A stretch of DNA of 43,071 nt, taken from assembly GCA_012522135.1 (NCBI GenBank), contig JAAYLA010000030.1, positions 1-43,071 on the forward strand, in the 5' to 3' direction. Position 1 is the stretch's first letter; every line of letters starts with the position of its first letter. The translations under genes and the position numbers were made by a program. The notes below the pieces were generated by a model. It was given only the letters and a program-made list of their open reading frames with translations. It did not search any database and was not told where the DNA came from. Of the stretch, positions 1 to 20,653 are shown piece by piece. This stretch comes from Bacillota bacterium (GTDB lineage: Bacteria; Bacillota; Limnochordia; DTU080; JAAYLA01).

Positions 1-316
1 CGTACAGGCCGCCGATGACGCTCTGACCGGCAGCGAGGAGCGCCTCGTGGAACACGCCGAGCACGTGCGGACGTTCCACCGGCGTAGCGTTGCGAATCGG
101 GCGGGAAGGATCGCTGAAACGGATGAAACTCTTAACGGGTGAGCCCTTCTTCTCCGAACCGTAAGAGGCGAAGTTCGATCCGTTGAAACCGGCGTACAGC
201 ACTCCGGCTTCGGCGATGATCTTACCGGCCACGTTCGCCCCCAATCCGCCGATCGATTCCAGGCGGATCTCAAAGAAGCCCTCACTGTTGGTGACAGGCA
301 ACTTCTGCTTGGACAT
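1..316 (-). CDS. 2-oxoacid (pyruvate):ferredoxin oxidoreductase gamma subunit, N-terminal part; the gene runs off the window start
   Basis: Absent from the ORF track because it has no stop inside the window. The reverse complement from the ATG at 316-314 reads MSKQKLPVTNSEGFFEIRLESIGGLGANVAGKIIAEAGVLYAGFNGSNFASYGSEKKGSPVKSFIRFSD..., a typical Por/Kor gamma N-terminus. GGAAGGAG RBS lies 9 nt upstream. Confidence 0.7.
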   Translation of the reverse strand, partial: MSKQKLPVTNSEGFFEIRLESIGGLGANVAGKIIAEAGVLYAGFNGSNFASYGSEKKGSPVKSFIRFSDPSRPIRNATPVERPHVLGVFHEALLAAGQSVIGGLY

Positions 317-505: not shown

Positions 506-1576
506 TTACCGGTGGATGGCGATCGCCTCCTTGACCGCTCCTTCCCCGCATGCGGCAGCGGCGGAGACGCCCACCTGTTCGAGCAAGGCAGGAAGCCCGG
601 CTGCATCGGGCCCGACGGGCCGCACGGCGCGCAGGCCGTTCAAGGCGACGAGCTGTGCAGCGATGCTCGGACCCCGCTCGGCCGGCGTGCGCGGGCCGAG
701 GTAGATAACGAGCCCGCCCTCCGCGGCGAGCCGCCGGAGCGCAGCAGCTAGATTCCGCCGGCCGGCTCCGTCCCGGGCACCGAAGACGTCTTCCTTGATG
801 CACGCTCTGTGGACATAAACTATGCCGGTTTGTCCCGGTCCAGGCTTCTTGCTCACGACGTGGTGGGTGTCGTCGTGGACCGTGTCGCGCACGGATTGGA
901 TCTCGAGCGTGCCGTAGTCAGATGCCAACGGTTCCTTATCGCCCGGCTGCAGATACCGGCCGTGCAGCAAGCGGTGCGCAACGAGTTCGTCCATGCCGAC
1001 CGTGGCGATGCCTTGGCGGGAGGCCAGATCTTGCAAGTACGCCGCGTCTGCGACGCGCCCGCTTCGGTCGAGGACGCCGCAGAAGGCGCCCGCCGGCTTG
1101 AGGCCTGCCAGGCGCATCAGGTCGACCGCGGCCTCGGGCATCTCAGCCCGTCCGAGCACGCCGTGTTCGTGGGCCACGTACGGGAACAGGTGGCCGGGGC
1201 GGATGAAATCGTCGGCCGTCGCTTCTTCGGATGTGAGCAGTCGCAGCGTGACCGCCCGGTCGCCGGCGCTGATGCCCGTCGTGGTTCCGTGCTTAGCATC
1301 TATAGATATGGTAGAAACCGAGTGCAACGCAGCCCCTGCCGCGTCGGCGGTCTGGACCATCGGACTCAAATCGAGCCGTCGTGCAGTGGCGGCGTCGATA
1401 CCTACGCATACTACGCCGCGCCCTTCGAGAGCCAGCAAGTTGACGCCGGCCGGCGTGGCATTTTCTGCAGCCAGGATGAGCGCTCCGCGCGTCGCGCCGG
1501 AATCGTCGCGCAACGTGAGCAGCACGGGCTGACCGGCTCGGAGCGCCTGGATGCATTTTTGGATGGAGGGTTTCAT
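506..1576 (-). CDS. RibBA-like protein: DHBP-synthase-like domain plus GTP-cyclohydrolase-II-like domain, both with degenerate catalytic motifs
   Basis: ORF 506..1750 trimmed to the ATG at 1576 (MKPSIQKCIQALRAGQPV...), which follows GGGAGGTAG. DHBPS-fold motifs are present: TTGISAGDRA, RPGHLFP, LAGLKPAG. The GCHII-like segment VYVHRACIKEDVFGARDGAGRRNL aligns to VRVHSECLTGD..RCDCG. Confidence 0.8.
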   Translation of the reverse strand: MKPSIQKCIQALRAGQPVLLTLRDDSGATRGALILAAENATPAGVNLLALEGRGVVCVGIDAATARRLDLSPMVQTADAAGAALHSVSTISIDAKHGTTTGISAGDRAVTLRLLTSEEATADDFIRPGHLFPYVAHEHGVLGRAEMPEAAVDLMRLAGLKPAGAFCGVLDRSGRVADAAYLQDLASRQGIATVGMDELVAHRLLHGRYLQPGDKEPLASDYGTLEIQSVRDTVHDDTHHVVSKKPGPGQTGIVYVHRACIKEDVFGARDGAGRRNLAAALRRLAAEGGLVIYLGPRTPAERGPSIAAQLVALNGLRAVRPVGPDAAGLPALLEQVGVSAAAACGEGAVKEAIAIHR

Positions 1577-1900: not shown

Positions 1901-2599
1901 ATGAAACGGACGAGAGGTTTGGGTGTTGTTGTTGCGACGGTAGCGTTGCTGTTGGCGGTGTCGTTTGCCGCCGGCGCGGCGAAGTACGAGGACGGAACGT
2001 ACCTCGGGTTCTCGGATGCGGACCGCCGTGGCTACATGATGGCCATCGTCACGATCGAGAACGACCAGATCACCGCTGTAATCCTGCAAGAGATGCAGTA
2101 CACCGGGTTGCCGAAGGATGAGTCCTATCCCTGGCCCCAGTTCCATGAGGCCATGCAGGTTCTGCCCCAGCGCTTTATCGAGGCCAACGGGCCGGACATC
2201 GACGGGTACACCGGCGCAACCGGTACCGTGAACAAGGCGAAGCAGGCCGTCGCCCGGGCCCTCGACAAGGCTTTGGTCGACAAGGGGCCGAGGAAGTACC
2301 AGGACGGCACGTTCTACGGCATCTCCACCGACCGTGAGCACAGCACGGGTGTAGCCTGGGTCACGATCGAAAACGACAAGATCGTGAAGGTCGAAGTTGA
2401 CGAGTTCCTCGAAGACGGCAGCTGGAAGGATTGGCCGAACTACCCCTGGCCGCAGGCTTACGAGGCCATGGCCGTTTACGAGCAGCGGTTCGTCGAGGCC
2501 CAGGACTGGCAGATCGACACGATCAGCCAGGCTACCGGCTCCGGCATCAAGTACATGCAGGCCGTGCAGCAGGCCCTGGAGTACGCAAGGCGCCAGTAG
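1901..2599 (+). CDS. Secreted protein with two tandem FMN-binding (FMN_bind) domains, PplA-like
   Basis: Signal peptide MKRTRGLGVVVATVALLLAVSFAAGAA. Two repeats each start KY(E/Q)DGT(Y/F) and carry ApbE-type flavinylation motifs, DGYTGATGT and DTISQATGS. RBS ACGGAGGTG lies 7 nt upstream. Confidence 0.8.
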   Translation: MKRTRGLGVVVATVALLLAVSFAAGAAKYEDGTYLGFSDADRRGYMMAIVTIENDQITAVILQEMQYTGLPKDESYPWPQFHEAMQVLPQRFIEANGPDIDGYTGATGTVNKAKQAVARALDKALVDKGPRKYQDGTFYGISTDREHSTGVAWVTIENDKIVKVEVDEFLEDGSWKDWPNYPWPQAYEAMAVYEQRFVEAQDWQIDTISQATGSGIKYMQAVQQALEYARRQ

Positions 2600-2613
2600 G
2601 TTCGTAACCGTCC

Positions 2614-2635
2614 GGCACGTGGCGGGCCACGTGCC
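2614..2635 (+). other. Perfect 10-bp GC-rich hairpin between the FMN-binding gene and rnfC
   Basis: GGCACGTGGC-gg-GCCACGTGCC, 15 nt after the TAG stop. No downstream T-tract. Confidence 0.5.
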
Positions 2636-2700
2636 CGCCGCGCCGCCCGGATGCTGTGCGAGAAACGAACGGCGAGTGATTTTGTGAAGGGGGGAGCAAG

Positions 2701-4014
2701 ATGCTCGGACTACGCAAGCGCCACGCAGGTGTGCGTCTGCCCAGTGCCAAGACCGTTGCGGACGTGGCGCTGACCGAGATTCCTGCCCCACAGAACGTTT
2801 ACATTCCTTTACAGCAGCACATCGGTATCGCGGCCGAGCCTTGCGTCAAGCGGGGCGACCGGGTGTTGATGGGCGATCCTTTGAGCATGTCGGACCATCC
2901 GATGCAGGTGCCCGTGCACGCTTCGGTCTCCGGCAAGGTTCGCTCGATTACGGAGGGCGTTCTGCCGTCGGGTAGGTTGGGGACCATCGTGCACATTGAA
3001 AACGATGGATTGTACGAACGCCGGGAGACAAGCGGCCGACCAAGCCCCCACGATTATACGCCGGAGGAAATTCGCAAGGCGGTACACGAGGGCGGCGTCG
3101 TCGGCTTGGGCGGCGCTGCTTTTCCGACGAGCGTCAAACTGAATCCGAAAAAGAAGATCGACACGCTGCTGATCAACGGCTGCGAAGGTGAGCCGGTGCT
3201 CAGCGCCGACCACAGGGCCATCTTGGAACTGACCGATCTGATGCTCTACGGCATCCAGGCCATGCAAATCGCCACCGGCGCCGAGCGGGTGATCATCGCG
3301 CTCGAAGACCACGATCCCGACGGCGCGGAGCACCTGCGCAAAGAGGCCAAGGGCATCGCCGAGGTCGTCGTGGTGCCCGCAGTGTACCCCGTGAGCGGCG
3401 AGTACACCTTGATCAAGGCGGTGCTCGGACGCAGAATTCCGATCGGCGGCCTGCCTGCAGATGTCGGCGTCGTAGTTCAGAACGTCGAGACGGCCGTAGC
3501 GGTCGGCAGGGTGCTGCGGGACGGTTGGCCTTTGACCCGCCGCATCATCACGGTGGCCGGCGGCGACGTTGAAAGGCCCGGCAACTACTACGTGGCGCTC
3601 GGGACTACGATTGCGGACGTCCTCGAACACGTCGGATGCCCCACGCCGCGCCAGGTGCTCTTGGGCGGTCCGATGATGGGCCAAGCCGTGCCCAACCTGG
3701 ACATTCCGGTGGTCAAGGGAACGTCCGGCATCATGGCTCTGTCGCCGGCAGAAATCGACGTACGCGAGCCCTTGCCTTGCGTGCGCTGTGGTCAGTGCAT
3801 CGCGGTGTGCGACAAGGGACTCAGCCCGATGATGCTTCTGAAGTACATTCAAAACGGCGAGTGGGAGAAGGCCGAGGAGTGGGGCCTGCGTACCTGCATG
3901 GAGTGTGGCGCCTGCGCTTTCGTCTGCCCGTCGAACATTCCGCTCGTGCAGTGGTTCAAGTCGGGTAAGGCGACGCTCAGTGCGAAGGCGGCGCCGAATT
4001 CGAAGGGGAGCTGA
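2701..4014 (+). CDS. rnfC: Rnf complex subunit C (NADH-binding, 2x[4Fe-4S])
   Basis: GLGGAAFPTSVKLNPKKKIDTLLINGCEGEP motif. Two ferredoxin motifs, CVRCGQCIAVC and CMECGACAFVCP. RBS AAGGGGGGAG. Confidence 0.92.
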   Translation: MLGLRKRHAGVRLPSAKTVADVALTEIPAPQNVYIPLQQHIGIAAEPCVKRGDRVLMGDPLSMSDHPMQVPVHASVSGKVRSITEGVLPSGRLGTIVHIENDGLYERRETSGRPSPHDYTPEEIRKAVHEGGVVGLGGAAFPTSVKLNPKKKIDTLLINGCEGEPVLSADHRAILELTDLMLYGIQAMQIATGAERVIIALEDHDPDGAEHLRKEAKGIAEVVVVPAVYPVSGEYTLIKAVLGRRIPIGGLPADVGVVVQNVETAVAVGRVLRDGWPLTRRIITVAGGDVERPGNYYVALGTTIADVLEHVGCPTPRQVLLGGPMMGQAVPNLDIPVVKGTSGIMALSPAEIDVREPLPCVRCGQCIAVCDKGLSPMMLLKYIQNGEWEKAEEWGLRTCMECGACAFVCPSNIPLVQWFKSGKATLSAKAAPNSKGS

Positions 4015-4019
4015 CGCTT

Positions 4020-4943
4020 ATGTCCAATCAGACGACTCTACTCCTCTCACCGTCCCCGCACATGCACTCCGGCAAGACGACGCAGCTCGCCATGTGGGGT
4101 GTTTGTGCGTCGCTGTTGCCTGTGTTGGGTACCGCCGTATATCTCTTCGGCACTTATGTACTCATCCTTACCCTGGTGACTTGTATCGGCGCGGTGCTCG
4201 CAGAAGCGGCTTCCTTGGCTCTGCGCAAGAGGCCGTGGACGGGAGAGGTTTCATCGCTAGTGACGGGCTTGATTCTGGCCCTGACGCTGCCGCCCCACGC
4301 ACCCCTTTGGGTTGGCTTTGTCGGCGGTGTCATCGCCATCGTCCTGGGCAAACAGGTATACGGCGGAACCGGCGCCAACCCCTTCAACCCCGCCGCGGTG
4401 GGCAGGGTGTTTCTGCTGGTCAGTTTTCCGGCCCAGCTCACCATGTGGACGGCACCTTTCGACGGCGTCAGCACGGCCACTCCCCTGGGCGGCGCCGAGG
4501 CGAGCCTGTGGACTTTGACCGTCGGTACACACGGCGGATCCATGGGAGAGACGTCGGCCATCGCGATACTTTGTGGCGCGGTCATCCTCTTTGCCATGAG
4601 GCTTATCGACTGGCAAGCGCCGGTAGGGACGGTCTTGGGAACGGCTCTCATTGCTCTATTGGTCGGAGAAGACCCCGTGTACCATGTGCTGACGGGCGGA
4701 TTGCTCTTCGGCGCCGTGTACATGGCCACGGACTGGGTTACGTCTCCGGTTACCAAGCGTGGCAGGTTCATCTTCGGTCTAGGAATCGGCGTGCTCACCA
4801 TGGTGATCCGTGTGTGGGGCAGCTACCCCGAGGGTGTGTCCTTTGCCATCCTGCTGATGAATGCGCTGACGCCCCTGATCAACCGGGCGGAGCTCAGCCT
4901 ACGCGAGAAGAGGAGGAAGGCGTATGTCCGTGCCACAAGCTAA
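4020..4943 (+). CDS. rnfD: Rnf complex subunit D (membrane, covalent FMN)
   Basis: Polytopic membrane protein with FNPAAVGRVFLLVSFP and the flavinylation motif DGVSTATPLGG. Starts 6 nt after rnfC. Confidence 0.92.
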   Translation: MSNQTTLLLSPSPHMHSGKTTQLAMWGVCASLLPVLGTAVYLFGTYVLILTLVTCIGAVLAEAASLALRKRPWTGEVSSLVTGLILALTLPPHAPLWVGFVGGVIAIVLGKQVYGGTGANPFNPAAVGRVFLLVSFPAQLTMWTAPFDGVSTATPLGGAEASLWTLTVGTHGGSMGETSAIAILCGAVILFAMRLIDWQAPVGTVLGTALIALLVGEDPVYHVLTGGLLFGAVYMATDWVTSPVTKRGRFIFGLGIGVLTMVIRVWGSYPEGVSFAILLMNALTPLINRAELSLREKRRKAYVRATS

Positions 4944-5958
4944 GACTTCATCGATGCGCCTCATTGTGACGCTCGCCATCACCTGCCTTGTTTCGGGAGC
5001 GGTGTTGGCTGCGGTGTACGGATGGATGAACCCGATGATCGAAGCGCGACGGCTCGAGCGGGTGATGTCCGTCGGGCTGCAGGGAATCTTCCCCGATGCG
5101 AACTCGTTCAAGGAACTGACTTTGGATGAGCTGCCCGCCGGCGTAGAGGAACCCGTTTACGAAGTGTTCGACGCGGCCGGCAAGACGCTCGGGATTTACT
5201 TCACCGGCAGCTCGAACGGTTACGGCGGTCCGATCCGGATGGCGGTCGGCGTCCATCCCGAGACGGCGAGCCTCGTCGCGGTGCGGGTGCTCGAGCAGTC
5301 GGAGACGCCGGGCCTCGGGGACAAGATTACCCAAGACGACTTTCTAAAGCAGCTCGCCGGCAAGCCTTTGTCCGACCCGTTCCGCATCGGCGATGACGTG
5401 CAGGGCATCACGGCGGCGACCGTATCGTCCCGGGCGGTGTTTAACGGCGCCTCGGGCATGGCCCGGGAGCTGCTCGGCGTGTTGGGCGTAGAAGTCGAAG
5501 TGGCGGCCGTCGAGGAAACCGAACAGGCCGAGCAAGGAGCCGGCGGCGTCGCGGAACCCGAGTTCGCCGCCGCGGTGCGCAAGAAGCTGGGCGAGGACGT
5601 AGCCTTCGAGCCTGCTGATTTGTGGGAGATTCACGGCGAAGACGGCCTCGTGGCAGTTGCTGCAGTCGGTAGCAAGCAAGGCTATGCGGCGCCCATCAAG
5701 GTATTGGCGATTGTCGATCCGGCGAGCCGCACCCTGGTCGGAGTCGAGGTTCTGGAAGTGAAGGATACCCCCGGTTTGGGCACGCGTGTCCAGGAGGCCG
5801 GCTGGCTCGCGCAGTTTGAGGGCAAGCCGGTGGACGATGCCTTCAAAGTGGGTCAGGACGTTGACGGGATTACCATGGCCACCATCTCGGCGCAGGCGAC
5901 GGCCGATGCGGTGAAGCAGGCGGCGGAAACGGTCCTGCAGCTGTATGCGGCAGATTAA
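4924..5958 (+). CDS. rnfG: Rnf complex subunit G with an internally duplicated FMN-binding domain
   Basis: N-terminal TM anchor followed by two homologous FMN_bind units: ..GGPIRMAVGV..VLEQSETPGLGDK..GKPLSDPFRIGDDVQGITAATVS and ..AAPIKVLAIV..VLEVKDTPGLGTR..GKPVDDAFKVGQDVDGITMATIS. Overlaps rnfD by 20 nt. RBS AGGAGGAAGG. Confidence 0.9.
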   Translation: MSVPQAKTSSMRLIVTLAITCLVSGAVLAAVYGWMNPMIEARRLERVMSVGLQGIFPDANSFKELTLDELPAGVEEPVYEVFDAAGKTLGIYFTGSSNGYGGPIRMAVGVHPETASLVAVRVLEQSETPGLGDKITQDDFLKQLAGKPLSDPFRIGDDVQGITAATVSSRAVFNGASGMARELLGVLGVEVEVAAVEETEQAEQGAGGVAEPEFAAAVRKKLGEDVAFEPADLWEIHGEDGLVAVAAVGSKQGYAAPIKVLAIVDPASRTLVGVEVLEVKDTPGLGTRVQEAGWLAQFEGKPVDDAFKVGQDVDGITMATISAQATADAVKQAAETVLQLYAAD

Positions 5959-5977
5959 CCGGGAGGGGGCGCATTCG

Positions 5978-6631
5978 ATGTCCAGGTTGAGAGAAACGTG
6001 GAATACGTTCACCGAAGGGTTCATCAGGCAGACGCCGCCTCTTTTCACGGCGCTCGGCCTGTGCCCGGCCCTGGCGATCACCACGTCGGCTGCGAACGGC
6101 CTGGTGATGGGCCTTTCCACGACCGCTGTCCTGGTCGGGTCGGCCGTCATGGCGTTGGCGATCCGGAACGTCGTACCGAAACAGGTGCGCATCCCGGTCT
6201 ACACGGTCGGTATCGCCACGATGGTGACGGTGGTGGACTTCTTGCTCGAAGGGCTGCTACCTGAGATCCACGCCCTGCTCGGACTGTTCATCCCGCTCAT
6301 CATCGTGAACTGCATCGTACTCGGGCGGGTGGAGGCGGCGTTTACCCGGATGAAACCTATGCCGGCCTTGGGTGACGCCTTCGGCTACGGCCTCGGTTTC
6401 ACTTGGGCTTTGACGCTCATCGGCATCATCCGTGAGGTCATGGCCGCCGGTACGATCTTCGGCGCCCGGGTGATGCCGGTAGGGTTCACCGCCTGGCAGA
6501 TCATGCGGACTCCGCCCGGAGCGTTCCTGACCATGGCGTTCTTGTTCGCCCTCATCCAGACGGTCAGGATGCAGTCGGCGAAGCGGCGGGACCGCCGCGC
6601 GGCCGAACAAACGCAGGCGCAAGCGGCGTGA
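5978..6631 (+). CDS. rnfE: Rnf complex subunit E
   Basis: ORF 5945..6631. The ATG at 5978 is preferred (MSRLRETWN...) because it sits 8 nt after GGGAGGGGG. LGLCPALAITTSAANG motif. Confidence 0.9.
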   Translation: MSRLRETWNTFTEGFIRQTPPLFTALGLCPALAITTSAANGLVMGLSTTAVLVGSAVMALAIRNVVPKQVRIPVYTVGIATMVTVVDFLLEGLLPEIHALLGLFIPLIIVNCIVLGRVEAAFTRMKPMPALGDAFGYGLGFTWALTLIGIIREVMAAGTIFGARVMPVGFTAWQIMRTPPGAFLTMAFLFALIQTVRMQSAKRRDRRAAEQTQAQAA

Positions 6632-6656
6632 GTAGGATGACAGGAGGTGCGTGGCA

Positions 6657-7238
6657 GTGAAAGAGCTGATTCTGCTCTTCATCGGATCAGCGCTGGTAAA
6701 TAACTTCCTCTTGGCCCGGTTCCTCGGCATCTGCTCCTTCCTCGGCGTCACGTCGCAGCTGCGGGCGGCCGTGTCGATGGGCGTGGCGGTAACGGGCGTC
6801 ATGTTCGGAGCCAGCACCGTGTCTTGGCTTCTCTATGCATACGTGCTGGATCCCCTCGGACTTCAGTACTTGCAGTATGTGGTGTTTATCTTGGTGATTG
6901 CCTCTATGGTGCAGGCCCTCGAGCAGGTTATCAAGGCCAGGATGCCGGGTCTGTACAGGGCCTTCGGCATCTACCTTCCTCTGATCACCACGAACTGCGC
7001 GATTCTCGGCGTGGCGCTGCTCGTGGTCCAAAACGAGTACAACCTGCTTTCGTCGATCGTCTTCGCCTTGGGGGGCGGTGCCGGTTTCACGCTGGCCATG
7101 GCGATGATGGCAGGCCTTAGGGAAGAGTTTCGGCCGCGGGAGATTCCCCATGCCTTTCGCGGCACCGGTATCGGCCTTGTAACCGCGGGGATCATGTCCC
7201 TCGCCTTCCTGGCTTTCAGTGGCATGATTCCCATGTAA
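6657..7238 (+). CDS. rnfA: Rnf complex subunit A
   Basis: KELILLFIGSALVNNFLLARFLGICSFLGV is a typical RnfA N-terminus. The GTG at 6657 lies 9 nt after AGGAGG. The track start at 6651 is only 3 nt from the RBS. Confidence 0.9.
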   Translation: MKELILLFIGSALVNNFLLARFLGICSFLGVTSQLRAAVSMGVAVTGVMFGASTVSWLLYAYVLDPLGLQYLQYVVFILVIASMVQALEQVIKARMPGLYRAFGIYLPLITTNCAILGVALLVVQNEYNLLSSIVFALGGGAGFTLAMAMMAGLREEFRPREIPHAFRGTGIGLVTAGIMSLAFLAFSGMIPM

Positions 7239-7372
7239 AGGCAAAAGGCCCGGTGCCGGCGGGACAGTTTGCCCTGGCACCGCTGGTACGTGATTCACTT
7301 CACAAATATGCGAGGCGCGTGGGACGATAGGTGTGAGAGGGGCGGGTGCCTCTCGAATTGGGGGGTCTGACC

Positions 7373-8188
7373 ATGGTTTACGTTGCCGCTGGGCTATTGG
7401 GACTTTTGGGCGGTCTCATCGCCTACGGGCTGCTGGCCGTGTTCCGCAAGGTAAACGGCGGCGAGGACGAACGCATCGAGATGCTCGAGAGCATGCTGCC
7501 GGGCGTCAACTGCGGGGCCTGCGGTACCGCGGGCTGCGCCGACATGGCCCGGGCGCTCGCAGCCGGCGAGCGGGAGCCGAGCGGTTGCCCGATTGCGAGC
7601 CCGAACACGATAAAGGCCATCGCGGAACTGTTAGGAGTCGAAGAGGGCGAGCGCAAGCGCAAGGTGGCGCAGCTCGTTTGCAGGGGGAAAGTATCGGCGG
7701 CGCCGGCCCGGGCAGACTACATCGGGCTGAGGGACTGTGTGGCGGCCAATGCGGTAGCCGGGGGACAGAAGGGCTGCACGTTCGGCTGCCTCGGTTTCGG
7801 TACGTGCGTCGGCGTGTGCCCGGTGGGCGCCATCAAGATGGGTGACGACGGTCTGCCCCACATCGACGTGGCCCTGTGCACCGGCTGCGGTTTGTGCGTG
7901 CAGGCTTGCCCCAGAAACACGTTAGAACTGATCGAAGAAGGACAAGGCGCCGTCATTCGGTGCATCTCGCAAGCGAGCGGAAAGACGGTGCGGGGCGTCT
8001 GCGAAGTCGGCTGCATCCAGTGCAAGATCTGCATCCGGGAGTGCCCGCAGAAGGCGATCTCCATCAAGGACGGACGCGTGTGGATCGACCCGGCCCTGTG
8101 CGACGGTTGCGGCATCTGTGCCGAGAAGTGCCCGAACGGCGTCATCGACGTACATCTGAAGGAGATCTTCGAGAGGGTGTCGGCCTAG
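7373..8188 (+). CDS. rnfB: Rnf complex subunit B (polyferredoxin)
   Basis: N-terminal TM helix, then CGACGTAGC, then four CxxCxxCxxxCP motifs. The ATG at 7373 follows GGGGGG. An alternative GTG lies at 7346. Confidence 0.88.
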   Translation: MVYVAAGLLGLLGGLIAYGLLAVFRKVNGGEDERIEMLESMLPGVNCGACGTAGCADMARALAAGEREPSGCPIASPNTIKAIAELLGVEEGERKRKVAQLVCRGKVSAAPARADYIGLRDCVAANAVAGGQKGCTFGCLGFGTCVGVCPVGAIKMGDDGLPHIDVALCTGCGLCVQACPRNTLELIEEGQGAVIRCISQASGKTVRGVCEVGCIQCKICIRECPQKAISIKDGRVWIDPALCDGCGICAEKCPNGVIDVHLKEIFERVSA

Positions 8189-9270
8189 TGACTAGACGGC
8201 ATACCGTTCTCATCGCCCTTGTGATCGCGTCGGTCTGGCTGATTACCGGATGCGGCACGAAAAGCGAGCCGCAGGCATCGCCGCAAGCAGAGGGGATCGA
8301 ATCGGCCAGCCGGGTGGCGTTCACCTTGGGAACGGTAGCCGAGCTGAGGGCCTACGGTCCCGGAGCGGAGGAAGCGGTCGATGCTGTGGTGGCGGAACTT
8401 GAGCGGCTCACCGCGGCACTCGACCGCTTTTCTCCCGGCAGCGACGTGTATAGGGTAAACGCCGCGGCGGGCGAGTGGGTTCGGGTAGGCTCAGAAACTT
8501 TGGCGCTCACCCGGACTGCTTTGGAAATTGCGAGAATGACGGACGGCGCCTTCGATCCGACGGTCGCGCCCCTCGTCGACCTCTGGGGCTTCGTGGAGGT
8601 TCCCGACAGCGCACCGGCGGAAGGCCAAGGCCCCACGGCGCTGTTGGGCCGGCGTCCGCCCGAGGATGCGGAAATCCGGCGCCTTCTGCCCCATGTCGGC
8701 TATGAGTTCGTCGAGGTCGACGAGGCGGGCTCACGGGTCCGCTTGACGGATCCCGAGGCCGAGCTTGACTTCGGCGCGATTGCCAAGGGTTACGCCGCCG
8801 ACAGGGCTGCGGCGGTCTTGAAGGAACACGGCATCGATTCGGCCTTCGTCAACCTGGGCGGCGACATCTTTGTCGTAGGGGGCAAGCCCGACGGCTCTCC
8901 CTGGCGCATCGCCATCCAACATCCGCGGCCCCGCGGTCCCAACGACTTCATCGGCGTCGTTTCCGTCAAAGACCGGTCGGTCGTGACGTCGGGCGACTAC
9001 GAGCGGTACTTCGAATACGAAGGCGTGCGCTACACCCACTTGATCGATCCCCGCACGGGCTACCCGCAGCAGGAGCTCGCCAGCATTACGGTAGTGGCTC
9101 CCACGGGCACTCAGGCGGACGCCTTGGCAACCGCCGTGGCCGTGATGGGCATGGAGAAGGGCCTGGAGTTCTTGGAAAGTCTGCCGGACGTAGAAGGGCT
9201 GTTGGTCGGGGTTGACGGGCGCATGGGCATGACTTCGGGCATGGAAAAGATGGTCGAACTCCGTAAGTAG
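8188..9270 (+). CDS. apbE: FAD:protein FMN transferase (ApbE/Ftp), lipoprotein
   Basis: The GTG at 8188 overlaps the rnfB TAG by 1 nt. Product VTRRHTVLIALVIASVWLITGC has a lipobox (LITGC). ApbE motifs AIAKGYAADRAA and TSGDYERYFEYEGVRYTHLIDPRTGYP. Confidence 0.88.
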   Translation: MTRRHTVLIALVIASVWLITGCGTKSEPQASPQAEGIESASRVAFTLGTVAELRAYGPGAEEAVDAVVAELERLTAALDRFSPGSDVYRVNAAAGEWVRVGSETLALTRTALEIARMTDGAFDPTVAPLVDLWGFVEVPDSAPAEGQGPTALLGRRPPEDAEIRRLLPHVGYEFVEVDEAGSRVRLTDPEAELDFGAIAKGYAADRAAAVLKEHGIDSAFVNLGGDIFVVGGKPDGSPWRIAIQHPRPRGPNDFIGVVSVKDRSVVTSGDYERYFEYEGVRYTHLIDPRTGYPQQELASITVVAPTGTQADALATAVAVMGMEKGLEFLESLPDVEGLLVGVDGRMGMTSGMEKMVELRK

Positions 9271-9313
9271 AGCGCCGGGCGGAAGGGGCCGGCAGGGAAA
9301 GGGCGGTGACGTC

Positions 9314-10297
9314 GTGGAAGCGTTGAAAGCAGGGGCCTTAAGCGGTGTGCACGCCGCAGGGCAAGCGGCTTCCGGTTCGCGCCGCACCGCCCACGACATC
9401 GCCCGGCTCGGGATGCTCCTTGCCTTGGCGACGGCGCTGCATACGTTTGAAGCGCAGCTCCCCGCCCTCCCCATCCCGGGCGCCAAAGTGGGGCTGGCCA
9501 ACGTCGTCTCGCTCCTGGCCCTGTACGCCTTCGGCCTGCGCGAAGCCTTGACCATCGTCGTGCTGCGGCAGGTAGCGGGATCGCTGTTCGTCGGCACATT
9601 TCTCTCGCCTGCTTTCTTCTTCGGTCTGGCCGGCGGCATACTGAGCGTGCTGGCCATGCAAACCGTACGCTGGATCGTGCCCAAGGCGACGCCCGTGACG
9701 ACGAGCCTGGTGGGCGCCGCAGCGCACAATACAGGCCAGCTGATCGTCGCTTGGTGGCTCACCGCACAGCCGGCGGTCTTTCTCTACCTCCCATACCTTC
9801 TCTGGTTTGCCGTTCCCGCCGGGGCTTTCATCGGCCGCTTGATGGAGAGCCTGCTGCCGTACTTGCGCTCGGCGGGTGTGTGGGACGAATGTGTCGACGC
9901 GAGTGCGCCGCGGAAGCGTTATACGGAGTGGGGCGTGGCGCTGGCATTGGCCCTCTTCGGCGGCGCCGTGCTCTACGTGGGGGCAGCTCAGCCGGCCGAG
10001 GAGCTGGGCGGCATCCCGGTGGCCGTGGTTCGGGTCGACGGAGACGAGCTGGTGCGCCTGCCTTTGACTGCCGAAGCACGTGAGAAGATCTTTGTCCGGG
10101 GCGGCGAGATGGAGATCGAGGTGAAGGAGGGCGCCGTCCGTGTGGCGCACTCCGATTGCAAGAACCAGCTGTGCGTGCGGCGGGGCTGGATCCACTCGAG
10201 CCGGGAGTCCATCGTCTGCGTGCCCTTCCACACGGTGATTACGATCGAAGGCATGCAGCAGGATCCGCTCGCTGACATCGACGGCATCTCGATGTAA
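9314..10297 (+). CDS. Fusion protein: Gx-transporter/ECF-S-component-like membrane domain (Hpre_diP_synt_I type) plus C-terminal NusG-domain-II-like domain
   Basis: N-terminal ~190 aa form 5-6 TM helices, including GAKVGLANVVSLLALYAFG and AAHNTGQLIVAWWL. One more TM follows. The C-terminal part VAVVRVDGDELVRLPL...IEVKEGAVRVAHSDCKNQLCVRRGWI...IVCVPFHTVITI resembles stand-alone NusG_II/DUF1312 proteins. Confidence 0.6.
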   Translation: MEALKAGALSGVHAAGQAASGSRRTAHDIARLGMLLALATALHTFEAQLPALPIPGAKVGLANVVSLLALYAFGLREALTIVVLRQVAGSLFVGTFLSPAFFFGLAGGILSVLAMQTVRWIVPKATPVTTSLVGAAAHNTGQLIVAWWLTAQPAVFLYLPYLLWFAVPAGAFIGRLMESLLPYLRSAGVWDECVDASAPRKRYTEWGVALALALFGGAVLYVGAAQPAEELGGIPVAVVRVDGDELVRLPLTAEAREKIFVRGGEMEIEVKEGAVRVAHSDCKNQLCVRRGWIHSSRESIVCVPFHTVITIEGMQQDPLADIDGISM

Positions 10298-10488: not shown

Positions 10489-11355
10489 ATGGTTGTGCCC
10501 GGCCGCGCCGCCCGGGCGGAGACGGGCGTGTGGTTGAGCGTCCTCGCTTACGTTTCGCTTACGCTGCTGAAACTCGCCGTAGGTGCCTTGGCGGGTTCCC
10601 TTTCGCTCCAGGCGGACGGATACAATAACGTCACGGATCTCGTGGCTTCATTTACGCTGCTTGTCGGCCTGCGAGTTGCCCGCCGCCCACGGGACGAAAA
10701 CCATCCTTACGGCCACGGACGGGCCGAGGCGATCGCTTCTCTGATTACGTCCATCGTCATGGCGGCCATCGCGCTGCAGGTCTTGTTAGCCGCCGGAGCC
10801 CGCCTTCTCGGATTGCAAGAGGGAACCGTACCCGATCCGTTGGCGGCGTGGGTGGGGGCCGCAGCGGCTGCCGTCCTGTTCACCCTTTTCGCCTTCAACC
10901 GCCGGCTCGCCGCCAAGTTGAACAGCTTGTCTTTGTGGGCTCTGTCGCGGGACAACCTCTCCGATGCCCTTGTCAGCACGGGCACCGTCGTCGGGATCAT
11001 CGGCTCGCGGCTCGGCGCTCCCTCGCTCGACCCTCTGGCGGCTCTCGTTATCGGCGCCGTCATCTGCCGCACATCGTGGAGCATCTTCAAAGAGTCTGCC
11101 ATCTTCTTGACTGACGGATTCGACGAGCAGGAGCTGGCGCGCTACCGCGAGACGGTCTTGAGCGTACCCGGAGTCGAGGGCGTCGGCGACATCCGGGCGC
11201 GCCTGCTCGGCCGGGACATTCTTGTGGACGTGACGATCAAGGTCAGGCCCGATCTCAACGTCGTCGACAGCCACAGGATCGCTGATGCGACGGAGAGAGA
11301 ACTTCGGCGCCGGCATCGGGTGCGCAGCAGTTTTATTCACGTCGAGCCCAGTTGA
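10489..11355 (+). CDS. Cation diffusion facilitator (CDF) family metal efflux transporter
   Basis: SLSLQADGYNNVTDLVASF and HPYGHGRAEAIASL motifs, six TM helices, and a C-terminal cytoplasmic domain. Confidence 0.85.
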   Translation: MVVPGRAARAETGVWLSVLAYVSLTLLKLAVGALAGSLSLQADGYNNVTDLVASFTLLVGLRVARRPRDENHPYGHGRAEAIASLITSIVMAAIALQVLLAAGARLLGLQEGTVPDPLAAWVGAAAAAVLFTLFAFNRRLAAKLNSLSLWALSRDNLSDALVSTGTVVGIIGSRLGAPSLDPLAALVIGAVICRTSWSIFKESAIFLTDGFDEQELARYRETVLSVPGVEGVGDIRARLLGRDILVDVTIKVRPDLNVVDSHRIADATERELRRRHRVRSSFIHVEPS

Positions 11356-11413
11356 GCCGCTGTCTCATCCCCCTCATTGACATCCTTACGGTACTCGGAT
11401 ACAGTGGATCTAG

Positions 11414-11430
11414 ATACCGGTATGGGGTAT
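11414..11430 (+). promoter_or_regulatory. CsoR-type operator upstream of csoR
   Basis: ATACCGGTATGGGGTAT. It has the same ATACC..GGGGTAT architecture as the box in front of copA. Confidence 0.5.
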
Positions 11431-11462
11431 GATCGGCTTTGCCCCATCGTCGCTGGAGGTGA

Positions 11463-11747
11463 GTGCCCTTGGCCTCCTACGGGCACGCTAAGGAGGATCT
11501 TTTGACGCGCCTGCGCAAGATCGAAGGTCAGGTCCGCGGAATTCAAAGGATGATCGACTAGGACAAATACTGTGTCGACATCTTGATCCAAATCTCCGCC
11601 GTCCGTTCCGCTCTGGATAAGGTCGGTTTGATGCTCCTGGAACACCACACGCGGGGCTGCGTCGTCCGGGCTCTGCGGGAAGGAGGCGGCGATGCCGATA
11701 GCGCCGTTTCCGAACTCACCGACGTGATGCGGCGCTTCATCAGATAG
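11463..11747 (+). pseudogene. csoR: Copper-sensing repressor CsoR interrupted by an in-frame TAG
   Basis: My own translation reads (V/M)[66 protein letters not shown]...RRFIR*. The TAG lies at 11559-11561, immediately before the conserved Cu-ligand YC. The likely start is the TTG at 11469, 9 nt after GGAGG. Not in the ORF track because it is split. Confidence 0.8.
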
Positions 11748-11766
11748 AGCGGGCTGCCGGAGTGTG

Positions 11767-11796
11767 TTGACAGCTTCCCCCGGGCAGGCGTATACT
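11767..11796 (+). promoter_or_regulatory. Sigma-A-type promoter of copA-copZ
   Basis: TTGACA (11767-11772), an 18-nt spacer, then TATACT (11791-11796). Confidence 0.6.
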
Positions 11797-11809
11797 GGAT
11801 GTAGTCCCT

Positions 11810-11826
11810 ATACCCTATGGGGGTAT
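11810..11826 (+). promoter_or_regulatory. CsoR operator overlapping the copA transcription start region
   Basis: ATACCCTATGGGGGTAT. Near-identical to the Bacillus copZA operator type (TACCCTACGGGGGTA), and located 14 nt after the -10 box. Confidence 0.7.
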
Positions 11827-11852
11827 GGCGTATAGTAAAGAAGGTGAGCCTT

Positions 11853-14342
11853 ATGGGCCAGGAGGGTAGCGCGACAGGGAGGAGAACGGCAGCCGTCACT
11901 TTGGGCGTTCAGGGCATGACCTGCGCCGCGTGCGTGCGCCGGGTCGAGCGCGGCCTGGCCAAACTGCCCGGAGTCGAGGAAGCTACGGTCAATTTGACCT
12001 TGGAGCGGGCGTCGGTCCGCTTCGATCCGGAGCTCGTCACCGTGGACGATCTCGCCGCGAAGGTGCGCGACTTGGGTTACGACGTCATTACCGACCGTGT
12101 TACGCTCTCGGTGGTCGGGATGACGTGCGCGAATTGTGCGACGCGGATCGAGAAGGGCCTGAACAAGCTCCCAGGTGTGAAAGCCACGGTCAATCTGGCG
12201 ACGGAGACGGCCCACGTCGAGTACTTGCCTTCCGTGACAAGCCTCGACGACGTGCGAAGGAAAATCGCCGATCTGGGTTACAAAGCGATCATTCCCGACG
12301 AGGCGGCAGGCGACCGGGAAAAGGAGGCGCGGGAGGCCGAAATTCGCCGGCAAAAGCGCCTGTTCGCACTTGCGGCGCTCCTTTCGTTTCCTCTCCTCGC
12401 ATCCATGGTCGGGCACATGTTGGGCATCGATCACGGATGGGTGCGCTTTTTTATGAACGGCTGGGTGCAGTTCGCCTTGGCCACGCCCGTGCAGTTCATC
12501 GCCGGCTGGCAGTTCTACGTCGACTCATACCATAACCTGAAAAACCGCAGCGCGAACATGTCGGTTCTAGTTGCGCTCGGCACGTCCGCGGCTTACATCT
12601 ACAGCCTGGTTGCCCTGCTCTTTCCCGAGGCGGACATCAGCGGCTTTTACTTCGAGACGAGCGCAGTCCTCATCACTTTGATTCTCCTGGGCAAGCTCCT
12701 CGAGGCGACGGCCAAGGGTCGCACTTCCGAGGCCATCAAGAAACTGATGGGTCTGCAGCCGAAAACCGCCCGGGTCGTCCGCGGCGGGGTTGAGCGGGAC
12801 ATTCCTATCGAAGAAGTGCAAGTCGGCGACCTGATCGTCGTGCGGCCGGGCGAGCGCATTCCCGTCGACGGCGTCGTGACGGAAGGGCGCTCCACGGTGG
12901 ACGAGTCGATGCTCACGGGTGAGAGCATGCCGGTTGAGAAGGGCCCGGGAGACGAGGTGGTCGGCGCGACGATCAACAAGCACGGCTCATTCACGATGCG
13001 GGCTACGAAGGTAGGCAAGGACACCGCCTTGGCGCAGATCATCCGCGTCGTGGAAGAGGCACAAGCTTCCAAGGCACCTATCCAGCGCCTGGCCGACGTC
13101 GTCTCGAGTTACTTCGTGCCCGCCGTCGTAGGTATCGCCTTGATCACTTTCTTCGGCTGGTACTCGGCTACGGGCGACTTTACGCGGGCCCTCTTGAACA
13201 TGACAGCGGTGCTGGTCATCGCGTGTCCCTGTGCCCTCGGCCTCGCCACGCCGACGGCGATCATGGTCGGCACGGGCCGCGGCGCCGAGAGCGGGATCCT
13301 GTTCAAGGGCGGCGAACACCTGGAGAGGGCCCACGAACTGAACGCCGTAGTGCTCGACAAGACGGGTACCATTACCAAGGGCGAGCCGGAAGTGACCGAC
13401 ATCATCTCGCTCGGTGCCTACGGCGCCGACGAGCTTCTTGCCCTCGTTGCCGCGGCTGAGCGCACTTCGGAACACCCGCTGGCCCACGCCATCGTCGCCT
13501 CGGCCAAAGCCCGCGGGCTGGAACCGGCCGCCTCGGAGCACTTCGAAGCCATTCCCGGCCACGGCATCCGGGCGACGGTCCGCGGCAAAGAGGTCCTGGT
13601 GGGCAACCGCAGGTTGATGGAGCGCCACGGCATCGATCTCGGCCCGGCGGAGCGCGAGATGGCGCGGCTTGAAGGGGAAGGAAAGACTGCCGTGGCGACC
13701 GCGGTCGACGGGCAGGCGGCAGGCATCTTGGCTGTGGCCGATCCGGTCAAGCCGACCTCCGCCGAAGCCATCCGTTTGCTGCACGAGATGGGTGTCCGGG
13801 TATTGATGCTCACCGGTGACAACCGCCGCACGGCCCGGGCCATTGCCCGGCAAGTCGGCATCGGCGAAGAGGACGTCATCGCCGAAGTCTTGCCCGAAGA
13901 GAAGGCAACGGCAGTAGAGCGTCTGCAAAAGGAGGGCCTCAAAGTCGGTATGGTGGGTGACGGCATCAACGACGCACCCGCCCTCGCTACCGCCGACGTC
14001 GGTATGGCGATAGGCAGCGGAACCGATGTGGCAATTGAGGCTGCCGATATCACGCTCATCGGGGACGACCTGCGAGGAATCGTTGCGGCCATCCGCCTGA
14101 GCCGGGCGACGATGGCCAAGATCCGGCAGAACCTGTTCTGGGCCCTGATCTATAACAGCCTGGGGATTCCCTTTGCCGCCTTCGGCCTGTTGAGTCCGAT
14201 CCTCGCGGGTGCGGCCATGGCGTTCAGCTCGGTTTCGGTGGTGACGAACTCCACTTTGCTGAAGCGTTTCGATCCGCAGCGGGGCTTCGAACGGCCCGAG
14301 GCACCCCGGGGCGAAAGTAGGCCGCAGCTGCAAAGCGCCTAA
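11853..14342 (+). CDS. copA: Copper-translocating P1B-type ATPase
   Basis: Two N-terminal HMA domains ([16 protein letters not shown]). CPC motif ([11 protein letters not shown]), DKTGTIT and GDGINDAP. The ATG at 11853 follows AAGGTGAG; the track start at 11817 lies inside the operator. Confidence 0.93.
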
Positions 14343-14383
14343 TGCATCTCAGGTAAGCCGGCTAAGGAAAGGAGGGAACGCCT

Positions 14384-14596
14384 ATGGAGACCAAGGTGCT
14401 GCAGATCGAAGGCATGAGCTGTGCCCATTGCCGGCGTGCGGTGGCCGAAGCGCTCCGGGAGCTGGAGGGTGTCAGCAGCGTCGAGGTGGACCTAGAGGGA
14501 GGAAAGGCCACCGTGTCGTACGATCCGGCGCAGGTGACGGAAGCCGCTTTGCAGGCAGCCGTCGAGGAAGCGGGTTACACGGTGGTCGCGGGTTAG
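14384..14596 (+). CDS. copZ: Copper chaperone CopZ (HMA domain)
   Basis: METKVLQIEGMSCAHCRRAV..., 70 aa, with a strong AAGGAAAGGAGG RBS. Confidence 0.9.
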   Translation: METKVLQIEGMSCAHCRRAVAEALRELEGVSSVEVDLEGGKATVSYDPAQVTEAALQAAVEEAGYTVVAG

Positions 14597-14616
14597 ATCG
14601 GAACTTGGTTTAACAG

Positions 14617-14650
14617 GCAGCCGGAGCAACTGCGCTTCGGCTGTTTTTCT
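14617..14650 (+). terminator. Rho-independent terminator after copZ
   Basis: CAGCCG (14618-14623) pairs with CGGCTG (14638-14643), followed by TTTTTCT. Confidence 0.55.
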
Positions 14651-14757
14651 GCGTAATTCCGCCCGGAACAGGACGGAGCTTGTCGACGTTTCATTCCGAG
14701 GACAATCGCCCCTTTATCTGGCGCCGCGACTGCGGATACGATAAAATGTGTAGTGAT

Positions 14758-14770
14758 ACAAATTATTTGT
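14758..14770 (+). promoter_or_regulatory. Perfect 6-1-6 AT-rich palindrome upstream of the ZIP transporter (candidate Zur/Fur-family box)
   Basis: ACAAAT-T-ATTTGT sits in an AT-rich island, about 10 nt after a TAAAAT -10-like hexamer (14742-14747) and 39 nt before the start codon. Confidence 0.4.
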
Positions 14771-14808
14771 CCTAAGTAAAACTCGTCGTCGTACGAGGAG
14801 TGGTCTTT

Positions 14809-15603
14809 GTGCTCCAGGATTTCTTCGTACGGATTGTGGGCGAGCACCCCGTCTGGCAGGCCCTCGCCGGGGGACTGGTCATCGCCGGATTGAACATGCT
14901 GGGCGCCACGCTCGTGCTATTCTGGCGCAACCCGCCCGAGCGCCTGATGAACGCCGGGCTCGGGGTGGCCGCCGGGGTCATGCTGTCCGCGAGCTTCACA
15001 AGCCTGATCTTGCCGGGCATCGACGCAGGCGGTATTTGGCCCGTGATCGCCGGAATGCTGCTCGGAATGCTCGTCATCGACCAGGCAGACCGGTGGGTGC
15101 CCCACGTGCACGTCCTGATCACGGGCCAGGTGGACGAGGCCCGTTCGGAGTCCCGCCGCGTAAAGTCGGTCTTGCTTTTTATCGTAGCCATCACGCTGCA
15201 CAATCTTCCCGAGGGACTTGCGGTCGGTGTCAGTTTCGGGGCGGGCAATCTGGCCGACGCCCTCACCTTGATGCTCGCGATCGGCCTCCAGAACATACCC
15301 GAGGGCTTGGCGGTCTCGCTCGCGGCCGTGAACGCGGGCTTCAGCCGGCGCACCTATGCCTTCCTCACGGGCGTGCGTGCGGGCCTTGTCGAGATACCGG
15401 TGGCCGTTCTAGGCGCTTTGGCGGTCACGGTATTCGAACCCCTCGTGCCCTATGCGATGGGCTTTGCCGCGGGGGCCATGCTGTATGTGATCAGCGACGA
15501 GGTGATTCCCGAAACCCACGCATCGGGCGACGAACGGCTGGCCACTTGGGGCGTGATGCTCGGGGCCATCGTGATGTTGTATCTGGACGTGACGCTGGGA
15601 TAG
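14809..15603 (+). CDS. ZIP family divalent metal (zinc) transporter
   Basis: LHNLPEGLAVGVSFGAG and LQNIPEGLAVSLAAV motifs. The GTG at 14809 lies 8 nt after GAGGAG. The track start is 14800. Confidence 0.85.
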   Translation: MLQDFFVRIVGEHPVWQALAGGLVIAGLNMLGATLVLFWRNPPERLMNAGLGVAAGVMLSASFTSLILPGIDAGGIWPVIAGMLLGMLVIDQADRWVPHVHVLITGQVDEARSESRRVKSVLLFIVAITLHNLPEGLAVGVSFGAGNLADALTLMLAIGLQNIPEGLAVSLAAVNAGFSRRTYAFLTGVRAGLVEIPVAVLGALAVTVFEPLVPYAMGFAAGAMLYVISDEVIPETHASGDERLATWGVMLGAIVMLYLDVTLG

Positions 15604-15630: not shown

Positions 15631-16398
15631 TCACAGCCAGACCGCTACGGCGATGCCGGCGGCCAGGGACCCTATGGTGACCGCCGCATCGACGTACGTA
15701 AAGTGCAGCGGATGCAGGTATGTCCGTGCGCTGCCGGGCCCGTACGCGCGGGCGGCCATGGCTTCTCCGAGCTCCTCTGCACGGCGCAGGGCACCGCCGA
15801 GCAGCGGCACGAGGACCGGAACCAAGGAGCGGATGCGTGCCGCGACCGACCGGGATCCGTGTGCTACGCCGCGCAGCATCTGAGCTTCCTGTATGCGCTT
15901 CGCTTCATCTGCGAGGACGGGCAAAAAGCGCAGGCTGATGCCGACGATCATGGTGAACTCGCGGGTGGGGACGCCGAAGCGCTGCAGCGGAGCCAGCGCC
16001 GCGTCGAGTCCCTGAGTCAGCTGAAGGGGCGACGACGTGCTCGTGAGGACCGTCGCGGCCAGGACCATGAGGGCGAGGCGCATCGACATCCAGATCCCCT
16101 TGAGGACGCCGGACCGGGTCACGGCGATAGGACCCCACGCGAACCAAGGCTCGCCCGTTCCGAGCAAGGCGTGGAAAAGCAACGTAAACACGAACAGAAT
16201 GCGCACTGCCCGCAGGCCGCGAACGAGGTTTTGCCGGGGCACGCGGGCCGCGGCGCTCCACGTCAGAACGGCACCCAGGGTGACGAGCATGCCGGGCCAG
16301 GTGGAAGCTCCCAAACTGCCGATGAGCACGGCCACGGTCATCGCCAGTTTGGTCCGGGGATCGAGGGCGCTTTGCCGCACGGGCTGGGCGAAGATCAT
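15631..16398 (-). CDS. ecfT: ECF transporter transmembrane (T) component
   Basis: CbiQ/EcfT-like polytopic protein. Its start overlaps the stop of the upstream ATPase gene (ATGA). Confidence 0.8.
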   Translation of the reverse strand: MIFAQPVRQSALDPRTKLAMTVAVLIGSLGASTWPGMLVTLGAVLTWSAAARVPRQNLVRGLRAVRILFVFTLLFHALLGTGEPWFAWGPIAVTRSGVLKGIWMSMRLALMVLAATVLTSTSSPLQLTQGLDAALAPLQRFGVPTREFTMIVGISLRFLPVLADEAKRIQEAQMLRGVAHGSRSVAARIRSLVPVLVPLLGGALRRAEELGEAMAARAYGPGSARTYLHPLHFTYVDAAVTIGSLAAGIAVAVWL

Positions 16399-18001: not shown

Positions 18002-18123
18002 GCAGACGACTCCCCTCGGCGGCGTAACCCTGCCGGACACGACCGGTTTGTCTCCGCCAGGTTTCGGCCCGGTCCGTCCCCGGGGGACGGCCTCGCCTCC
18101 CAGTCTACCCGTAGCCGGAATCG

Positions 18124-19304: not shown

Positions 19305-19330
19305 GCCGGCCCGGGCCCGGCGGGAAGCGC

Positions 19331-20608: not shown

Positions 20609-20653
20609 TGGCGATGCACTCCTTATTCCACCTTGATCCGAGGCCCGGTGCGC

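Follow-up and report, generated by a model that had tools for sequence, protein, structure and literature searches.

A Limnochordia-like Rnf operon within an extracytosolic flavinylation cluster, headed by a predicted secreted two-domain FMN protein

The stretch of DNA considered here is contig JAAYLA010000030.1 (assembly GCA_012522135.1) of a Bacillota bacterium, read over 43,071 nucleotides, which are referred to below as the window (G+C content about 63%). Its subject is a gene cluster built around an Rnf complex. Nine contiguous plus-strand genes occupy positions 1901–10297. Searches with Pfam and NCBIfam profile hidden Markov models identify them, in order, as a gene for a protein with two domains of the flavin mononucleotide (FMN)-binding type, called the di-FMN protein below, followed by rnfCDGEAB, apbE and a fusion of PF07456 and PF07009. 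A preliminary description, made from the sequence alone, had assigned the same nine same-strand genes, and these profile searches confirm it.

1901–2599, plus strand: di-FMN protein, 232 amino acids (aa), with two stretches matching PF04205
2701–4014, plus strand: rnfC, the NAD(H)-side subunit with FMN and iron-sulfur centres (Pfam RnfC_N, Complex1_51K, SLBB and Fer4; TIGR01945, 437 bits against a cut-off of 246)
4020–4943, plus strand: rnfD (PF03116, E = 2.5e-104; TIGR01946, 272 bits against a cut-off of 207)
4924–5958, plus strand: rnfG, N-terminally membrane-anchored, with two FMN_bind domains (PF04205, two stretches; TIGR01947, 160.9 bits against a cut-off of 102)
5945–6631, plus strand: rnfE (PF02508; NF009070, 206.7 bits against a cut-off of 184)
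6651–7238, plus strand: rnfA (PF02508; TIGR01943, 243.6 bits against a cut-off of 229.3)
7346–8188, plus strand: rnfB, the ferredoxin-side polyferredoxin subunit (PF04060 and several Fer4 families; TIGR01944, 86.9 bits against a cut-off of 68.7)
8188–9270, plus strand: apbE, a flavin adenine dinucleotide (FAD):protein FMN transferase and lipoprotein (PF02424, E = 1.9e-93, 313 bits)
9314–10297, plus strand: predicted eetB-eetA fusion, 327 aa (PF07456, Hpre_diP_synt_I, then PF07009, NusG_II)

The Rnf set is complete, with six intact genes in one contiguous run, and every NCBIfam rnf model scores above its curated cut-off. The successive intergenic distances across the nine genes are 101, 5, −20, −14, 19, 107, −1 and 43 nucleotides (nt), and the apbE start is a GTG at 8188 that overlaps the rnfB stop codon (TAGTG). 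No convincing terminators or promoters were found inside the cluster, the terminator-like sites numbering 11 against 8.6 expected by chance, and an Rfam search of the window returned neither an FMN riboswitch nor any other family. The 101 nt that separate the di-FMN gene from rnfC include a GC-rich stem-loop (2610–2650). Its position, with a different sequence, is kept in the 81% identical related locus L060 (approximately 3190–3225), and it is absent from relatives where the gap measures 6–17 nt. As a candidate regulatory element it was dropped, its stability being no greater than that of shuffled sequence (z = −1.16).

ApbE-type target motifs were scanned for with the pattern [DQ]Gx[ST]xAT or Dxx[ST]xAT. 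Five sites were located, the same number as counted previously: DGYTGAT (T107) and DTISQAT (T212) in the di-FMN protein, DGVSTAT (T154) in RnfD, and QGITAAT (T166) and DGITMAT (T320) in RnfG. The remaining 35 proteins predicted in the window, together about 12.7k residues, contain no instance of the pattern. An alignment of 26 di-FMN homologues shows T107 and T212 to be invariant, as T166 and T320 are in six two-domain RnfG orthologues, and the flavinylation threonines of RnfD and RnfG are conserved in relatives. Because the motifs are confined to these five sites and their threonines are invariant, the observation holds at the level of sequence and is not a chance pattern.

The two proteins with paired motifs were examined as possible electron carriers. 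In RnfG, the second FMN_bind domain is an internal duplicate of the first (42% identical), to which it is connected through an acidic linker of roughly 35 residues. The solved Rnf structures 7zc6, 8ahx and 9eri match domain 1 only. The di-FMN protein has a signal peptide without a cysteine or lipobox, so that it is secreted or anchored by its N-terminus. Its earlier designation as PplA-like holds for the two FMN_bind domains, but the protein, unlike PplA, is not a lipoprotein. The AlphaFold2 (AF2) model (predicted local distance difference test, pLDDT, 91.9) comprises a helix at the N-terminus and, after it, two beta3-alpha2 modules. Among solved folds, the closest to it are 3o6u and 2kzx, both uncharacterised FMN_bind proteins, together with 8p2a (SaFMN3-D2) and 8p2b; the SaFMN3 and CbFMN4 domains align with each di-FMN domain at template modelling (TM) scores of 0.74–0.83, normalised to the target. 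A sequence search of the Protein Data Bank (PDB) with the di-FMN protein gave no match, and the fold search alone was informative. The two domains share 47% identity, and their similarity to RnfG is marginal.

The family to which the di-FMN protein belongs is broad. Its profile collects 246 representative clusters at E ≤ 1e-30, many of them long proteins with 4–13 module repeats, and no PplA from Listeria or Bacilli is found among 53 sequence relatives. The di-FMN protein and RnfG each combine a secretion or anchor signal with at least two FMN_bind domains, every one of which has a motif; these are the features of the multi-flavinylated protein class (Meheust et al. 2021). Judged by these features, the di-FMN protein is a minimal two-module form of that class. 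In the characterised members SaFMN3 and CbFMN4, FMN is bound covalently to a threonine of a Dxx[ST]GA[ST]-like motif (Tong et al. 2023, PMC10339131; 8p2a, 8p2b). The domain fold and the N-terminal secretion or anchor sequence are shared with these proteins, but the di-FMN protein has only two domains and partly non-canonical motifs (TGAT, SQAT), and its gene lies inside an rnf operon. Within the 26-sequence alignment, signal peptides without cysteine occur in the window's protein and in homologues from Limnochordales and Halanaerobiales, whereas lipoboxes are found in those from Alkaliphilus, Serpentinicella, Dethiobacter and Clostridium formicaceticum/aceticum. The choice between lipobox and plain signal peptide may correlate with a single- or a two-membrane cell envelope, respectively.

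The remaining genes of the cluster concern the supply of the cofactor. ApbE carries the lipobox LITGC, which targets it to the extracytosolic side. The ninth gene had been described as a Gx/NusG-II membrane fusion, and the supposed absence of EetAB from the window had been used as an argument for a relay different from that of Listeria. This argument cannot be maintained. PF07456 is the Pfam family of eetB, and PF07009 proteins are labelled EetA in Data Set S1 of Rivera-Lugo et al. (2023, PMC9973259); since the ninth gene joins these two families, it is identified by its domain content as a fused EetB-EetA, in the order EetB then EetA. Listeria EetB binds FAD and has a structure resembling the S-component of energy-coupling factor (ECF) transporters. 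Flavinylation of Listeria PplA needs EetB unless FAD is supplied externally, and the ECF-T protein FmnA and the EcfA/A' ATPases are also involved (PMC9973259). By analogy, the fusion is a predicted substrate subunit for FAD export, and its expected role is cofactor supply rather than electron transfer. In an AF2 model built from 22 homologues (pLDDT 76.7), the N-terminal membrane domain resembles the riboflavin S-components RibU 3p5n, 5kbw and 5kc0 (target-normalised TM 0.66–0.70). This ECF-S-like domain is followed by one further transmembrane helix and then by a beta domain resembling DUF1312 proteins and NusG domain II (4esn, 3ld7). Thirty fused EetBA homologues were found, including one in Limnochorda pilosa.

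An ECF-type module that could complete the exporter is encoded further downstream:

15631–16398, minus strand: ECF-T, CbiQ family, transmembrane coupling subunit and likely partner of EetB (PF02361, E = 3.7e-32)
16395–17216, minus strand: ECF ATPase (A') (PF00005)
17192–18169, minus strand: ECF ATPase (A) (PF00005)

In the window these genes are separated from eetBA by a 5-kb metal-homeostasis block. In the related loci L067, L068 and L069, by contrast, orthologues of ECF-T (40–51% identity) and of ECF-A/A' abut eetBA directly in convergent orientation, and for this reason the metal block looks like an insertion. In L063 the three genes lie about 4 kb from eetBA. Judging by this arrangement, the ECF-T/A/A' genes at 15631–18169 appear to belong functionally with the cluster. 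A 493-aa open reading frame at 15703–17184 (plus strand), with high third-position GC and no Pfam match, was rejected as a shadow frame opposite the ECF-T and A' genes. The arrangement recalls the EetB/FmnA exporter of Listeria monocytogenes and its Rnf-associated homologues (PMC9973259) in that a PF07456 S-like subunit stands beside apbE, with ECF-T and two ATPases nearby; it differs in the fusion of EetB with EetA and in the distance imposed by the metal block, and FAD binding and export are here predictions by analogy. In the same survey, eetB lies beside eetA in 3,328 genomes (fused in 14), beside apbE in 2,169, beside ECF-T in 291, beside ECF-A/A' in 796, and beside Rnf in 572 Clostridia genomes (PMC9973259). 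The locus is a further, independent piece of genomic evidence in favour of a joint supply of FAD to ApbE by EetB, EetA and ECF-T/A/A'.

The gene order di-FMN-rnfCDGEAB-apbE-eetBA is found in nine relatives at approximately 40–86% identity. It is kept in full in L060 and L061 (81%), L063, and L067, L068 and L069, the last three having been found through the EetBA fusion (46–55% identity). It is also kept, with a variant RnfC, in the Limnochordales-type metagenome-assembled genomes (MAGs) L002, L004 and L016. The di-FMN gene, a two- or three-domain RnfG and the fusion are accordingly syntenic with rnf in all nine loci, where RnfG measures 344–477 aa and bears two or three flavinylation sites. 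Only 6–17 nt separate the end of the di-FMN gene from rnfC in L063 and L068, which implies co-transcription. Among relatives in general, the number of RnfG domains ranges from two to four. The RnfG of L067 (5312–6745) has 477 aa and three motifs, that of P0089 has 488 aa, and a 552-aa RnfG is encoded in the Syntrophomonadaceae MAG L070 (10001–11659), in an operon without a di-FMN gene and without eetBA. A metagenome scan with RnfG returned three short contigs only.

The conserved loci appear to represent a Limnochordia-like lineage of Bacillota, which is placed in or near Limnochordia because the EetBA fusion also occurs in Limnochorda pilosa. On the gene orders compared, the combination of di-FMN and rnf is lineage-specific and consistently linked within the lineage. 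In the three MAGs with variant RnfC, the rnfC slot is occupied by an RnfC-like protein of approximately 490–500 aa whose Complex1_51K (NADH/FMN-binding) domain is lost or degenerate, and a canonical RnfC gene is located after eetBA instead:

L002: in-operon RnfC-like gene 10814–12298, canonical rnfC 19421–20713
L004: in-operon RnfC-like gene 10703–12205, canonical rnfC 19269–20693
L016: in-operon RnfC-like gene 3760–5220, canonical rnfC 12307–13632

The altered domain suggests that the in-operon variant may have a different cytoplasmic partner.

Outside this lineage the di-FMN family is independent of Rnf, because 50 of the 56 GTDB loci with a di-FMN homologue are not beside rnf. These orphan loci belong to Halanaerobiales, Thermotogota, Alkaliphilus, Fermentithermobacillaceae and other groups, and two of their contexts were inspected gene by gene. 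Unsupervised clustering of the neighbours over the 56 loci revealed no universal partner gene. In 11 orphan loci (L019, L021, L027, L038, L043, L045–L049 and L051) the neighbour, by its N-terminal sequence, is a putative Rex-like redox-sensing repressor; if this identity is correct, it hints at NADH-responsive control in those lineages. An apbE gene stands beside the di-FMN gene in the absence of rnf in L010, L022, L028 and L044. Tandem duplicates of the di-FMN gene occur in L010, L011, L014, L015, L044 and L046 (Halanaerobiaceae, Alkaliphilus and others).

The locus is probably a lineage-specific Rnf operon with its own cofactor-maturation kit and two additional outward-facing flavin carriers. 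To judge from published homologues, EetBA would form an ECF-type transporter with ECF-T and the two ATPases and export FAD, which ApbE would use to attach FMN covalently to T154 of RnfD, T166 and T320 of RnfG, and T107 and T212 of the di-FMN protein. The Rnf core, by the same analogy, would couple ferredoxin oxidation to NAD+ reduction and ion translocation; the reduced ferredoxin could come, for example, from the pyruvate/2-oxoacid:ferredoxin oxidoreductase (POR) encoded at the left end of the window. For the steps beyond the core, anatomy and synteny are the guide. The tethered second domain of RnfG may take electrons from the first RnfG flavin and hand them to the soluble di-FMN protein. 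This protein may in turn deliver them to an acceptor for which the window has no gene, for example O2, a metal ion or a flavinylated reductase. Rnf would thereby have a lateral outlet, or inlet, for electrons at the membrane's outer face.

Because the di-FMN gene and the duplicated RnfG domain are syntenic with rnf in nine loci, an Rnf-linked outward flavin branch is a reasonable inference. The preliminary description had proposed a ferredoxin- and Rnf-linked flavin relay on the outer face of the membrane. What stands of that proposal is the Rnf operon within an extracytosolic flavinylation cluster, with a plausible branch; its reasoning from missing EetAB genes does not. The gene survey also bears out its statement that Rnf is the sole membrane redox engine in the window, in which there are no genes for Ndh2 or for demethylmenaquinone (DMK) synthesis, as known from extracellular electron transfer (EET) of the Listeria type. 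If the side branch is real, Rnf links the ferredoxin/NAD+ pool to redox chemistry outside the cytoplasmic membrane by covalent flavins alone.

Several points weigh against this interpretation. The window encodes no terminal acceptor, and genes for Ndh2, DMK synthesis, cytochromes or reductases are likewise missing from it. The support for flavinylation, transcription and electron flow is indirect. The co-location of the genes could simply reflect a shared dependence on ApbE and FAD export. All Rnf-linked examples may belong to one lineage, so that their synteny could be a single inherited event. The 50 orphan loci have neither rnf nor a redox partner nearby, and conversely L070 and L071 have a multi-domain RnfG but no di-FMN gene.

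The alternative that survives best takes the locus for an ordinary Rnf operon, equipped with maturation genes but lacking a separate electron outlet. In that case the complex itself would include domain 2 of RnfG and the di-FMN protein as accessory parts, serving as an electron buffer, as a stabilising or assembly factor, or as a seventh subunit. Such a part would be expected where the di-FMN gene is found, at the head of the operon and with tight spacing to rnfC in relatives, but most members of its family are orphan genes distant from rnf. The protein also shares its domain subfamily with long multi-flavinylated wires. The solved Rnf structures (7zc6, 8ahx, 9eri) need one RnfG flavin only, and the variation from two to four RnfG domains among relatives fits a wire better than a fixed subunit. 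Although Rnf-ApbE-EetB clusters are common and the window has yielded no acceptor gene, both of which favour the simpler operon, this alternative is considered unlikely.

A second alternative separates the di-FMN protein from Rnf altogether. It would act as an O2- or peroxide-forming oxidase, as a scavenger or as a metal reductase with another donor, and would share with Rnf only the maturation by ApbE and FAD export. Purified SaFMN3, for which no natural donor is known, does react readily with O2 (PMC10339131). Orphan di-FMN genes adjoin the Rex-like repressor in 11 loci, or a molybdopterin oxidoreductase, and four loci, listed above, pair the gene with apbE alone. Against these observations stands the situation in the lineage itself: without exception the di-FMN gene directly precedes rnfC and occurs together with a multi-domain RnfG, and no alternative membrane donor is encoded nearby. 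An independent function is rather improbable here. The version given in the preliminary description, a Listeria-type PplA pathway without EetAB, Ndh2 and DMK in which Rnf substitutes and the Gx/NusG-II protein is an extra membrane component, accords with the lack of ndh2 and dmk genes in the window and with the PplA-like two-FMN architecture of the first gene, but is very improbable, as that membrane protein is EetB-EetA, which in Listeria serves FAD export and not electron transfer, and as the di-FMN protein is not a lipoprotein and has no Listeria or Bacilli PplA among its 53 relatives.

The preferred reading, that of an Rnf operon with its own maturation kit and extra flavin carriers, allows a more tentative extension. 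In the Limnochordia-like lineage, Rnf might be a three-way machine from which electrons of ferredoxin or NADH exit without quinones or cytochromes, or into which external electrons enter and drive ferredoxin reduction; this is possible, though doubtful. Electrons would be carried by the additional flavin domain of RnfG and by the di-FMN protein as a soluble shuttle in the periplasm, the latter being a flavin counterpart of a small periplasmic cytochrome c. The Limnochordia-like lineage is reported to have two membranes. As a hint, the extension fits the plain signal peptides of Limnochordales and Halanaerobiales, as opposed to the lipoboxes of ordinary single-membrane Clostridia.

Clusters of this kind are already known from bioinformatic work. 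Multi-flavinylated proteins are often encoded beside known transmembrane electron-transfer systems, and it has been proposed that Rnf, through multi-flavinylated RnfGs, reaches extracytosolic acceptors by a second electron route (Meheust et al. 2021, PMC8238504, section 18 and Fig. 6). The window resembles those Rnf clusters in its RnfG with more than one FMN_bind domain and in the presence of ApbE in the cluster. In contrast to them, it adds a separate secreted two-domain FMN gene at the head of the operon and a fused EetB-EetA with an ECF-T/A/A' module. No Limnochordia entries were found in the accessible part of the supplement to that study. The locus also resembles that of flavin-based EET in Listeria (Light et al. 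2018), where an extracytosolic protein with two ApbE sites, PplA, is encoded beside ApbE and EetAB, but the di-FMN protein of the window lacks a lipobox and has no detectable close sequence relationship to PplA.

The preliminary description had called the relay uncharacterised. No experiment on an Rnf-fed flavin side branch is reported in a 2025 review of ApbE, although work published after 2023 may have been missed, and to this extent the statement is correct. The branch itself was proposed in 2021 (PMC8238504), and both the association of eetB with Rnf and EetA-EetB fusions were reported in 2023 (PMC9973259), so that the claim to novelty has to be narrowed accordingly. The particular features of the locus are the separate secreted di-FMN gene that heads the operon and the complete syntenic ECF module. 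Unsurprising in itself, it makes a good, compact test case. The lineage offers a conserved 13-gene module for such a test (carrier, Rnf core, ApbE, fused EetBA and ECF-T/A/A'), and of its genes at least the fused eetBA is present in Limnochorda pilosa, a relative that has been cultured.

The cluster is flanked on both sides by genes of other functions:

1–316, minus strand: N-terminus of POR (POR gamma domain; PF01558, E = 1.3e-11), extending beyond the left end of the window
506–1576, minus strand: ribBA-like gene, divergent from the cluster (full DHBP synthase domain, PF00926, E = 1e-50)
10489–15603, plus strand: metal-homeostasis block with a cation diffusion facilitator (CDF) exporter, csoR, a copA P-type ATPase and a ZIP transporter

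A 2-oxoacid oxidoreductase had been noted just upstream of the cluster. The POR gamma domain is indeed present, but it is encoded on the minus strand, and the ribBA-like gene intervenes. A POR gene also neighbours the cluster in L063 and L067, and it is a plausible source of reduced ferredoxin. The ribBA-like gene includes only a partial GTP cyclohydrolase II domain (PF00925 positions 7–97 of 165) and scores well under the NCBIfam equivalog cut-offs. It occupies the same divergent position in L060, L061 and L063 and may supply flavin.

The metal-homeostasis block also follows eetBA in L060 and L061, whose contigs end within or before copA. Within the block, the csoR copper-repressor gene (11463–11747, plus strand) contains an in-frame TAG at 11559–11561, where the orthologue of L060 (85% identical) has Gln. 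The gene may accordingly be a pseudogene, contain a sequencing error or include a read-through site.

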